Shown here piece after piece: positions 2,144-4,069 of a stretch of 23,488 bases of DNA. The position numbers and the translations under genes were made by a program. The stretch's first letter is position 1, and each line of letters begins with the position of its first letter. Below the pieces are notes generated by a model. The model had not been told where the DNA came from and made no database searches. It worked only from the letters and a program-made list of their open reading frames with translations. The DNA comes from a virus (taxonomy: Duplodnaviria > Heunggongvirae > Uroviricota > Caudoviricetes): the IMG/VR virus record IMGVR_UViG_2671180903_000008, positions 1 to 23,488 of that record; one strand, 5' to 3'.

Positions 2144-4069
2144 GTGACTCTTAAACGGGCCTGCTCCCTGCTGACGGTGAAATCCTTCAGTGAGGATGAG
2201 CGGGTGATCACCGGGATTGCGTCAACGCCTTCTCCGGATCGGGATGGTGACATCCTGGAGCCGGAGGGCGCGGAGTTTGGCAGTGCGATCCCGTTTCTCT
2301 GGCAGCATGACCATTCCCGCCCGGTGGGGCAGTGTACGGTGCGCCGGGTCAGCGAAGGGCTGGAAATCACGGCAACACTGGCGAAGCCCGTGCCGGATAT
2401 GCCATCGCAACTGGTTGCCCGGCTGGATGAGGCCTGGGCGGCCATTAAGACCGGGCTGGTCAGGGGGCTTTCCGTGGGCTTCCGTCCCCATGAATACACC
2501 TTTCTGGACGGGGGCGGACTGCATTTTCTGCGCTGGGAACTGATGGAGGTATCTGCCGTCACCGTACCCGCGAATGCGGAATGCACCATCCGGACCATTA
2601 AATCTTACGACCGCCCGTTTTCTGCACGGAAACCGGTGGTGAAAATCGCATCTTCTGCCGGCGCTTCGGCACAGTCAATAACCTCTTTTCATAAGGAAAA
2701 GTCAGCAATGAATACTGGTGAACAGATTAAAAGTTTTGAAAACAAGCGTGCGGCGCTGGCAGCCTCCCTTGAGGAGATCATGAACAAAGCCGCAGAGGAA
2801 GGCCGCACACTGGATGTGGAAGAGGAAGAGCACTACGACAACACCGCAGCGGAAATCCGTCAGGTGGATGCGCACCTGAAGCGTCTGCGTGAACTGGAAA
2901 CCAGTAAGGCCGCCACGGCACAGCCGGTGAAACAGGCCGGTAACGGGAATGTGGCCGCGGTGGCTTCTGCGCCGGTGATCCGTGTGGAGCAGAAACTGGA
3001 TAAGGGGATTGGTTTCGCACGTTTTGCCAAATCGCTGGCTGCGGCTAAAGGTGTCCGCTCTGAAGCCCTGGAAGTGGCCCGTCGTCAGTATCCGGATGAC
3101 AGTCGTCTGCATCATGTCCTGAAATCGGCAGTGGGCGCGGGGACCACCACGGATCCGCAGTGGGCAGGCAGCCTGTCTGAATATCAGGAATACGCACAGG
3201 ACTTTATTGATTACCTGCGTCCGCAGACCATTATCGGGCGATTTGGTCAGGGCGGGATCCCTGCACTTCGTCAGGTGCCGTTCAATATCCGTGTGCACGC
3301 CCAGGTGTCCGGCGGTGCTGCCGGCTGGGTGGGTGAGGGTAAGGCCAGACCCCTGACGAAGTTTGATTTTGAATCCATCACCTTCAGTCATGCGAAAGTG
3401 TCGGCCATTGCGGTACTGACGGAAGAATTGATCCGTTTTTCCAGTCCGGCTGCTGATGCACTGGTCCGTAATGCGCTGGCGGAAGCGGTGGTGGCGCGTC
3501 TGGATACAGACTTTGTGGACCCGAAAAAAGCCGCAGTGGCAGATGTCTCCCCGGCGTCCATCACCCATGATGTGAAGGGCACGGCATCAACCGGTAACCC
3601 GGATGCGGATGCAGAGGCGGCGTTTGGCCAGTTTGTGGCAGCAAACCTGCAGCCCACCGGTGCGGTCTGGCTGATGTCCAGCACCAATGCCCTGGCACTG
3701 TCCATGCGTAAAAATGCGCTGGGTCAGAAGGAATACCCGGACATGACCCTGCTGGGTGGCTCCTTCCAGGGGCTGCCGGTGATTGTCTCCCAGTACGTGG
3801 GTGACCAGCTGGTGCTGGTGAATGCCCCGGATATTTATCTGGCGGATGACGGCGGCGTGGCAGTGGATATGTCCCGCGAGGCATCACTGGAAATGCAGTC
3901 TGAGCCGGGCGGCGACAGTACCACGCCGTCCCCGGTGGAGCTGGTTTCCATGTTCCAGACAGGCAGCGTGGCCATCCGTGCGGAGCGCTGGATCAACTGG
4001 CGTCGTCGCCGTACTGCGGCGGTGGCTGTGATCACCGGTGTGAACTACGGCAGTGCGTCCGGCGGCTGA
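2144..4069 (+). CDS. Prohead protease / major capsid protein in-frame fusion (HK97 family)
   Basis: N-terminal ~185 aa resemble HK97-type prohead protease; remainder resembles HK97-fold major capsid protein with a coiled-coil N-terminal scaffold-like segment. GTG start with AGGAGG 6 nt upstream. Internal in-frame ATG at ~2708 preceded by AAGGAAAAG. Confidence 0.8.
   Translation: MTLKRACSLLTVKSFSEDERVITGIASTPSPDRDGDILEPEGAEFGSAIPFLWQHDHSRPVGQCTVRRVSEGLEITATLAKPVPDMPSQLVARLDEAWAAIKTGLVRGLSVGFRPHEYTFLDGGGLHFLRWELMEVSAVTVPANAECTIRTIKSYDRPFSARKPVVKIASSAGASAQSITSFHKEKSAMNTGEQIKSFENKRAALAASLEEIMNKAAEEGRTLDVEEEEHYDNTAAEIRQVDAHLKRLRELETSKAATAQPVKQAGNGNVAAVASAPVIRVEQKLDKGIGFARFAKSLAAAKGVRSEALEVARRQYPDDSRLHHVLKSAVGAGTTTDPQWAGSLSEYQEYAQDFIDYLRPQTIIGRFGQGGIPALRQVPFNIRVHAQVSGGAAGWVGEGKARPLTKFDFESITFSHAKVSAIAVLTEELIRFSSPAADALVRNALAEAVVARLDTDFVDPKKAAVADVSPASITHDVKGTASTGNPDADAEAAFGQFVAANLQPTGAVWLMSSTNALALSMRKNALGQKEYPDMTLLGGSFQGLPVIVSQYVGDQLVLVNAPDIYLADDGGVAVDMSREASLEMQSEPGGDSTTPSPVELVSMFQTGSVAIRAERWINWRRRRTAAVAVITGVNYGSASGG

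Follow-up and report, generated by a model that had tools for sequence, protein, structure and literature searches.

A fused prohead protease-scaffold-capsid gene in an Escherichia coli prophage and its candidate internal translation start

Layout and domains of the fused head gene

The window analysed here is a stretch of 23,488 nucleotides (nt) from a tailed virus (IMG/VR record IMGVR_UViG_2671180903_000008, positions 1 to 23,488). At 2144-4069 it carries a head gene in which a prohead protease of the HK97 type, a scaffolding domain and a major capsid protein are joined in one open reading frame (ORF) of 641 amino acids (aa). The gene, its signals and its domains are listed below, together with the evidence for each; AF2 stands for AlphaFold2.

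2105..2131, + strand: predicted terminator-like GC hairpin and T-run between terL and the fusion gene (terminator scan and RNA fold)
2133..2138, + strand: Shine-Dalgarno (SD) sequence AGGAGG for the long, protease-containing product, 5 nt 5' of the GTG at 2144 (read from the sequence)
2144..4069 including the stop, + strand: full-length ORF, 641 aa, 68.7 kDa, protease-linker-scaffold-capsid fusion with a GTG start (ORF listing)
2192..2599, + strand: S78 (HK97-type) prohead serine protease domain, aa ~17-152 (Pfam, alignment to HK97 gp4, AF2)
2306-2308 and 2471-2473, + strand: catalytic His55 and Ser110, respectively (alignment to HK97 gp4)
2600..2707, + strand: disordered, indel-tolerant linker, aa 153-188 (AF2, conservation, a deletion)
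2693..2701, + strand: internal SD-like AAGGAAAAG with the core AAGGA at 2693-2697, 10 nt 5' of the ATG at 2708
2708..4069, + strand: nested in-frame ORF from Met189, 453 aa, 48.3 kDa, scaffold plus capsid, predicted second product (sequence, alignment to relatives)
2708..3133, + strand: scaffolding (delta-like) domain, aa 189 to ~330, with a putative C-terminal boundary (AF2, TIGR01554, PDB profile match)
3134..4066, + strand: HK97-fold major capsid core, aa ~331-641, the fold beginning at ~338 in the model (Foldseek, PF05065)

Neither the ORF listing nor the sequence contains an in-frame stop codon between the protease and capsid parts of 2144-4069, and the ATG at 2708-2710 is in frame with the GTG ((2708 - 2144)/3 = 188), which makes it the codon of Met189. 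An earlier reading of the letters alone (the original prediction) had described protease and capsid protein as one 641-aa frame without a stop, with an in-frame ATG at about 2708 and the SD-like motif upstream of it. The ORF listing, the sequence and the domain matches confirm the frame, and the coordinates and description of the ATG and its motif are correct. The prediction had also placed this ATG at the start of the capsid domain. The codon does mark a domain boundary, but the domain that begins there is the scaffolding (delta) domain, and the capsid fold starts only near aa 338 in the structural model.

That model is a predicted structure, computed with AF2 from a 105-sequence alignment (mean predicted local distance difference test score, pLDDT, 83). 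It was used instead of a model from 26 close homologues, which reached a mean pLDDT of 43 and in which the capsid part was unusable.

By sequence comparison, the N-terminal domain is an S78 prohead protease with intact catalytic residues, and its proteolytic activity is predicted. Pfam PF04586 (Peptidase_S78) matches aa 48-152 with 34.3 bits (cutoff 21), and phrog_80 ('head maturation protease') matches with an E value of 5e-41. An alignment with HK97 gp4, which the original prediction had proposed as a check, identifies the N-terminal part as a genuine S78 domain and sets His55 and Ser110 against His65 and Ser114 of gp4. No substitution of His55 or Ser110 occurs across 105 aligned homologues (38-97% identity), and Glu135 is almost as strictly conserved. 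The match to TIGR01543 (proheadase_HK97) does not reach the equivalog cutoff (45.8 bits vs 59), and the domain is thus a member of a divergent subfamily rather than an HK97 gp4 equivalog. The model shows a beta-rich protease with pLDDT above 89 for aa 21-150.

The protease is followed by a linker in which aa 153-186 have pLDDT values of 33-42. Of all 10-aa blocks in the protein, residues 181-190 are the least conserved (majority fraction 0.46). In the window the linker is 4 aa shorter (at ~2620-2635) than in the Shiga toxin (Stx) phage BP-4795, FSA----RKP against FSAASGNRKP. This 12-nt, in-frame deletion lies within the disordered linker and explains why the protein is shorter than most of its relatives (641 vs 645 aa in BP-4795).

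For the scaffolding domain, the model predicts a two-helix hairpin (191-258), a variable loop (266-279) and three short helices (289-327). The helices at 191-219 and 225-258 are modelled with pLDDT values of 94-97, and aa 196-267 match, at the profile level, the N-terminal region of PDB entry 9gyi. A low-confidence stretch (331-335) lies between the scaffold helices and the capsid core.

The C-terminal part is an HK97-fold capsid protein as judged by profiles and by the predicted fold. TIGR01554 (major_cap_HK97) matches aa 200-580 with 80.3 bits (cutoff 27.5) and Pfam PF05065 (Phage_capsid) matches aa 382-631 with 53.5 bits (cutoff 24.2). When the AF2 model was compared with the PDB by Foldseek, the top 50 hits were all phage or gene transfer agent capsid proteins, with E values from 1e-15 to 4e-9 and target template modelling (TM) scores of 0.5-0.73; Bxb1, HK97, T5, D3 and phiXacJX1 are among them. 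A sequence search of the PDB returned only distant capsid proteins, none of them closely related. Since the capsid part and HK97 gp5 did not match significantly in pairwise BLAST, membership in the family rests on the profile models and the fold prediction. A weak local alignment places the mature N-terminal region of HK97 near residue 330.

As a whole, the protein matches phrog_617, a fused 'major head protein' of lambdoid and Stx phages, with an E value of 2e-260 (aa 1-635 against positions 7-626 of the 626 in the profile). Its score with the NCBIfam model NF045541 ('prohead protease/major capsid protein fusion protein') is 52.6 bits, far below the cutoff of 525, and the alignment is confined to aa 48-282. 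The window protein shares the architecture of NF045541 but is not one of its members and belongs to another lineage.

Distribution and prior knowledge of the fusion

A 2.2-kb region of the locus was found with 90-97% nucleotide identity in 93 phage records, including the Stx phages BP-4795, 2851, YYZ-2008, JLK-2012 and Stx2a_WGPS6. It is also present, often more than once per genome, in 1,252 of the 5,426 complete E. coli genomes. The protein is 97% identical to E. coli 'phage major capsid protein' entries that carry both PF04586 and PF05065. Beyond this group, the fused form occurs at 72-76% protein identity in Salmonella, Enterobacter, Klebsiella, Serratia and others, and at 39-55% in Marinobacter, Hydrocarboniphaga, Chelativorans, Mesorhizobium and Caulobacteraceae; at 39-76% identity it thus extends over Enterobacterales, other gamma-proteobacteria and alpha-proteobacteria. 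An exhaustive search of representatives of 50%-identity clusters gave 1,175 proteins at E <= 1e-30. Among the best 150 of these representatives, 131 are of fusion length (590-720 aa, 39-56% identity), and nearly all align over almost the whole query.

These data bear on the suspicion that the continuous frame is a sequencing or assembly error, or a stop-loss mutation in a decaying prophage. The window prophage is indeed truncated after its gpM-like tail gene, and it carries the 12-nt linker deletion relative to most relatives. The deletion, however, keeps the frame and falls within the disordered linker, and the frame is uninterrupted in 92 phage records and 1,245 genomes of E. coli at a coverage of at least 80%; plaque-forming Stx phages have it too, as do distant genera. 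The conservation data effectively refute an error or pseudogene, and we give this explanation practically no credence. They also counter the possibility, raised by the original prediction against itself, that resequencing might reveal a stop codon between the domains: the same frame is present in the 93 phage records, the 1,252 E. coli genomes and the distant genera.

The same prediction implied that the fusion was new, and this is not upheld. The fusion is a common head gene of Stx-converting and other lambdoid prophages; it has been annotated for about two decades in the Stx-phage group and has been described in other phages. ORF56 of BP-4795 is annotated as 'putative major head protein/prohead protease'. 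Natural protease-capsid fusions were reportedly discussed by Duda et al. in J Mol Biol in 2013. Agrobacterium phage Miki has a 629-aa protein composed of an S78 domain (~160 aa), a scaffold (~160 aa) and an HK97-fold capsid part (PMC13611946). A single gene for protease, (scaffold) and capsid is also found as gp5 of Pseudomonas phage MD8 (PMC8508860), in actinophage clusters AU, AM, BI, DJ and CC (bioRxiv 10.1101/2020.01.10.891226) and in thaumarchaeal proviruses (PMC6563490). Like these and Rhizobium phage RHph_X2_26, the window gene unites protease, scaffold region and HK97-fold capsid; the protease of MD8 is lambda-C-like, unlike the S78 enzyme of the window. The accessible portions of the Miki, MD8, actinophage and thaumarchaeal papers yielded no discussion of an internal start. 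More generally, internal initiation in protease-capsid fusions was not found in the accessible literature, though it may have been noted before.

Some homologues depart from this architecture. Three proteins of ~1,080-1,094 aa (P0123, P0133 and P0001) have ~440 additional N-terminal residues before the protease-capsid fusion, and P0001 also carries the TerL ATPase Pfam domain; such proteins may represent even larger fusions, or else artefacts of read-through or frameshifting. In Parasphingorhabdus (locus L028, 2911-4709) the order is reversed. A capsid gene without a helical scaffold domain comes first, and the protease gene, which overlaps it and has a C-terminal extension, comes second, a third arrangement of the modules. 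The 'coat protein' of Moraxella phage Mcat31 was considered as a further fusion and rejected, as protease and capsid are separate genes there.

The candidate internal start in fused and split relatives

To the extent that the sequence alone can tell, the ATG at 2708 has the appearance of a start codon in its own right. When 27 fused genes (the window and related loci) were aligned and the DNA was read at the Met189 column, ATG was found in 21 and GTG in two copies from Hydrocarboniphaga. Of the remaining four, L024 has CTG alone in this column and no SD-like motif nearby, and in the other three an ATG or TTG lies one or two codons upstream. The start codon is preceded at a distance of 6-10 nt by a motif that is of the AAGGA type in Enterobacterales and of the GGAGGG type in GC-rich hosts.

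All in-frame positions of 25 non-redundant genes (39-97% identity) were then scanned for the combination of a start codon with an SD-like duplex. The site within two codons of Met189 ranked first (23 of the 25 genes), and the annotated gene start scored in 22. The only other high-scoring column lies near residue 578 (20 of 25), in a strongly conserved segment where the majority fraction upstream is 0.87; at the Met189 site this fraction is 0.43-0.46, in the least conserved block of the protein.

The wider set of 131 fusion-length representatives gives the same picture. In 121 of them a Met is present no more than nine residues upstream of the conserved Glu193 (about 20% would be expected by chance), and in 94 it occupies the exact one or two positions. 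DNA was retrieved for all ten representatives that lack this Met: nine have GTG and one has TTG at the position, and each of the ten has GGAG, AGGA or GGAGG 6-10 nt upstream. A start-capable codon (121 ATG, 9 GTG, 1 TTG) is therefore kept in 131 of 131. GTG makes up 14-63% of the Val codons in the non-Met genes, and the probability that all nine would be GTG by chance is ~5e-5.

One could suppose that only the full-length polyprotein is made, that every subunit carries a protease which is trimmed off after assembly, and that the Met and the purine-rich codons before it serve a need of the protein, such as a cleavage site or the opening turn of the scaffold helix. The SD sequence at the upstream start is the stronger one in most loci, no internal promoter emerged from a promoter scan, and a recognition motif could be formed by the K/R-E/G-G/K residues that precede the Met; 415 extra passengers of 20 kDa would, by a rough estimate, take up about half of the interior of a T=7 procapsid, which is crowded but not impossible. 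Yet it is the nucleotide motif, with its spacing of 6-10 nt, that is retained, and not the residues before the Met, which vary (HKEKSA, RKGNNT, IKGKN, PQEGN, PREGRD and others). Where the motif contains a Gly codon, this is invariably GGA, a minority codon: it is used in all 15 of the Gly-containing Enterobacterales loci of the recoding set described below, in genes where GGA accounts for ~2-32% of Gly codons (less than 17% in 14 of the 15). This codon bias supports selection at the nucleotide level. Moreover, a preference for a hydrophobic residue would also admit GTC, GTT, GTA, Ile or Phe in the non-Met cases. None of these occurs, the cases being exclusively GTG or TTG, which argues against a purely structural constraint. 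Since the position of Met189 is also provided with SD sequence and start codon as well as the real start of the gene is, we consider it unlikely that the polyprotein is the only product.

The split-gene relatives are informative in this respect. In Snodgrassella alvi a protease of 234 aa ends in a stop codon, and a separate capsid gene of 439 aa begins MTIEEQIN...; Burkholderia phage vB_SBP39 has an annotated protease of 212 aa and a separate capsid protein of 444 aa beginning MTIAEKIK.... In the alignment, the first residue of each of these capsid proteins falls on Met189. Likewise, four capsid-only cluster representatives begin at aa 189-193 of the query, and residue 1 of one of them, P0254, aligns with Met189 itself. 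At the junction vB_SBP39 reads caaTAAGGAttccttacgcATG and the window reads catAAGGAaaagtcagcaATG, with an identical spacing of AAGGA, 10 nt and ATG. In the window, an out-of-frame TAA at 2692-2694 overlaps the internal AAGGA; in vB_SBP39 (locus L032, 2080-2101) the real stop codon of the protease occupies the corresponding TAAGGA, and in many Enterobacterales loci a TAA is found just 5' of the motif. Comparison of these junctions suggests that a change of frame by one nucleotide may interconvert the fused and split forms.

The same junctions invite the thought that the internal SD sequence and ATG are non-functional fossils, left behind by a recent or repeated fusion through loss of the stop codon and not yet decayed. 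Split relatives with identical start and spacing would be expected under such a history, as would an out-of-frame TAA that overlaps the SD sequence where the stop of vB_SBP39 lies and that a one-nucleotide change could bring back into use. The fused form dominates, however: the 131 fusion-length proteins among the best 150 representatives span 39-56% identity and several proteobacterial classes. Over this range almost nothing of the linker's sequence and length has been preserved. A neutral ATG and SD sequence would often have been lost in the process, yet all 131 keep a start-capable codon. We therefore think it improbable that the signals are mere remnants.

Several observations nevertheless weigh against an internal start that is used. 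In a synonymous-recoding test, which covered 20 of the 25 loci, a motif just as good as the native SD-like one arose in 3-40% of the recoded sequences for the majority of loci, and in over half of them for two GC-rich loci. The signal per locus is thus weak (0.03-0.8), and the case rests on the ensemble, codon-identity and cross-family tests. The internal motif of the E. coli lineage is a modest one (AAGGA, with a calculated duplex energy of -6.2 kcal/mol against the anti-SD sequence), and its 10-nt spacing is near the usual upper end. The upstream AGGAGG is stronger, so that the long form could dominate, and the ratio of the two products is not predictable. Met, Val and Leu are all hydrophobic, so that some constraint at the protein level may play a part. 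No internal sigma-70-like promoter was found in a scan of positions 1900-4400, and a separate transcript in the manner of herpesvirus UL26.5 is thus not supported. RNA structure around the internal start was not significant (z = -1.67) and a small hairpin there is not conserved; structural regulation by the RNA was dropped as a candidate on these grounds. Searches of the accessible literature found no expression, ribosome-profiling or virion-protein data for the gene or its homologues. Finally, the window prophage has no distal tail genes, and this copy may never build virions on its own.

On balance, the idea of the original prediction that the ATG at 2708 could start the capsid protein independently gains strong support from the comparison: the start codon and SD motif are conserved, the non-Met cases are GTG or TTG, and the separate capsid genes of relatives start at this point. 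As a comparative result, the family-wide conservation of the internal start is solid, and a specialist would find it reasonable rather than surprising.

A two-product model, related systems and the surrounding prophage

We consider it probable that 2144-4069 is a nested gene with two products, a protease-scaffold-capsid protein and a scaffold-capsid protein, which assemble together. We infer the production of both proteins, their ratio, their co-assembly and the cleavage sites from the comparisons given above, and the model would run as follows. Initiation at the GTG at 2144 would yield the 68.7-kDa polyprotein, consisting of S78 protease, flexible linker, scaffold (delta) and HK97-fold capsid, and initiation at the ATG at 2708 by means of the AAGGA at 2693-2697 would yield the 48.3-kDa scaffold-capsid protein alone. 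As both would share the scaffold and shell parts, they could co-assemble into a procapsid, and the long form would carry the protease inside as a covalent passenger. This covalent delivery would replace the C-terminal capsid-targeting tail of the free-standing HK97 gp4, which is absent from the window protein; the short disordered linker, which runs straight into the scaffold domain, fits delivery by attachment. Once the shell is closed, the protease would cut itself off and digest the scaffold domains, leaving a mature subunit of a predicted ~33 kDa that starts near residue 330.

The gene is the same as ORF56 of BP-4795 and its counterparts in 2851, YYZ-2008, JLK-2012, Stx2a_WGPS6 and prophages of enterohaemorrhagic E. 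coli, with ~96-97% nucleotide identity, the same frame and GTG start, and the same gene order (terL - fusion gene - small ORF - portal). The window copy differs in its linker, shorter by 4 aa, and in its location in a prophage that lacks the distal tail genes. Public annotations of the BP-4795 group give one product and make no mention of an internal start.

With gp4 and gp5 of HK97 the gene has in common the protease family with its aligned His and Ser residues, the N-terminal scaffold on an HK97-fold capsid protein, and the position of the protease-coding part immediately upstream. HK97, however, has two genes, the first with its stop at 4025 and the second with its start at 4028. HK97 gp4 also has an extension of ~60 aa C-terminal to the protease fold, in contrast to the ~35-aa linker of the window protein that leads directly into the scaffold. 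In HK97 this extension is the signal that targets the protease into the procapsid.

Parallels in terms of mechanism would be lambda C/Nu3, Mu I/Z, T4 gene 21 and herpesvirus UL26/UL26.5, where one frame gives a long form with the protease and a shorter C-terminal assembly protein with an initiation of its own, and where co-assembly of the two brings in the protease and sets its dose. Translation of Nu3 begins at an internal in-frame start of lambda C, and Mu I/Z and T4 gene 21 are nested as well. A conserved internal in-frame start at a domain boundary and a ribosome-binding site (RBS) motif embedded in the coding sequence, both features of the lambda C/Nu3 type, are present in the window gene. 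There are differences, too. In these systems the nested product is scaffold only and the capsid protein has its own gene, whereas the nested product predicted for the window is scaffold plus capsid. The protease of lambda is from another family, and the herpesviruses use a separate promoter instead of an internal RBS. Dual products have been demonstrated in these systems, and they are predicted for the window gene. Protease and scaffold are encoded in one gene in both lambda and P2 (PMC8508860), and in herpesviruses a single gene gives rise to a protease-scaffold fusion and to stand-alone scaffold, the latter being ~10-fold more abundant (PMC11565193).

Similarity to the T5 proteins pb11 and pb8 is more distant. 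T5-like proteases match at ~30% identity, and the T5 capsid protein is found by the family profile and by the fold search; pb8 has a long N-terminal scaffolding domain, as does the window protein. Unlike in the window, the T5 genes are separate; T5 also has a larger capsid, and overall similarity is low.

While public records name a single product for genes of this kind ('major capsid protein', 'prohead protease' or 'capsid and scaffold'), comparison across relatives indicates that there are probably two. If this is true, it would explain how a limited number of protease molecules is loaded without a targeting tail of the HK97 gp4 type, and it would extend the dosing strategy of lambda C/Nu3 and herpesvirus UL26/UL26.5 to the capsid protein itself. 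In medically relevant Stx phages, the effect of protease dose on capsid maturation could then be studied through a simple mutable handle, one ATG and one AAGGA. More tentatively, and with some doubt on our part, the model might be generalised to the whole family of S78-capsid fusions with its more than a thousand 50%-identity clusters. One gene would then hold the entire procapsid programme, the ratio of protease to shell would be set purely by two competing RBSs in one frame, and the fused and split states would be toggled by a one-nucleotide change at TAAGGA, which acts either as stop plus SD or as coding sequence plus SD. Such an arrangement is not known to have been described for this family.

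Translation signals of the first start are also conserved: a motif of the GGAGG type is kept 5' of it in nearly all related loci. The first start codon itself is GTG in the E. coli/Stx-phage lineage and ATG in all other loci examined. GTG could reduce the yield of the protease-containing product in the former. The hairpin and T-run at 2105-2131 directly adjoin the AGGAGG of the fusion gene. A gcgggtttttt...ggagg arrangement is likewise found 5' of the protease start in Enterobacterales, Marinobacter and Snodgrassella loci, and the HK97 record has a putative terminator annotated just 5' of gene 4. The terminator-like hairpin sits before the most highly needed head gene.

The other phage genes of the window are as follows.

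419-2080: terL, preceded by a small ORF
4114-4335: small conserved ORF of 73 aa (phrog_829, no assigned function), located 3' of the capsid gene and overlapping the start of the portal gene by 55 nt
4281-5645: portal gene
5642-6703: repeat-containing ORF of 353 aa, with the repeat at 5807-6237
between the repeat-containing ORF and the tape measure gene: head-tail joining genes and tail tube gene
9690-12932: tape measure gene
12925-13266: gpM-like minor tail gene

The order is thus terL, fusion gene, 73-aa ORF and portal, with the portal gene downstream of the capsid gene, as opposed to terL, portal, protease and capsid in HK97. The downstream position of the portal gene is kept in BP-4795, in Burkholderia phage vB_SBP39 and in several metagenomic loci. 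In distant metagenomic loci, too, a gene for ~72 aa comes after the fusion gene.

Phage genes end at ~13.3 kb, and no tail-tip or fibre genes were found after the gpM-like gene up to the end of the window at 23488. The sequence 3' of this point contains an espK/espO-associated remnant, potB, potA, pepT and roxA, followed by a second integrase gene at 19338-20588. The window is part of an E. coli chromosome. The junction at 12600-14600 was found in no complete E. coli genome at a coverage of at least 80%. As the distal tail genes are lost, the prophage alone probably makes no virions although its head gene is intact.

The 353-aa ORF downstream of the portal gene contains a 162-bp tandem repeat (2.7 copies, 97% identity) that encodes units of 54 aa. 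Its product matches 'portal protein' PHROGs in their C-terminal parts only and has a weak match to CBM_5_12; it may be a decoration protein or a portal-associated protein. The homologue in BP-4795 has 461 aa and is longer by exactly two units, which indicates that the copy number of the repeat varies between prophages.

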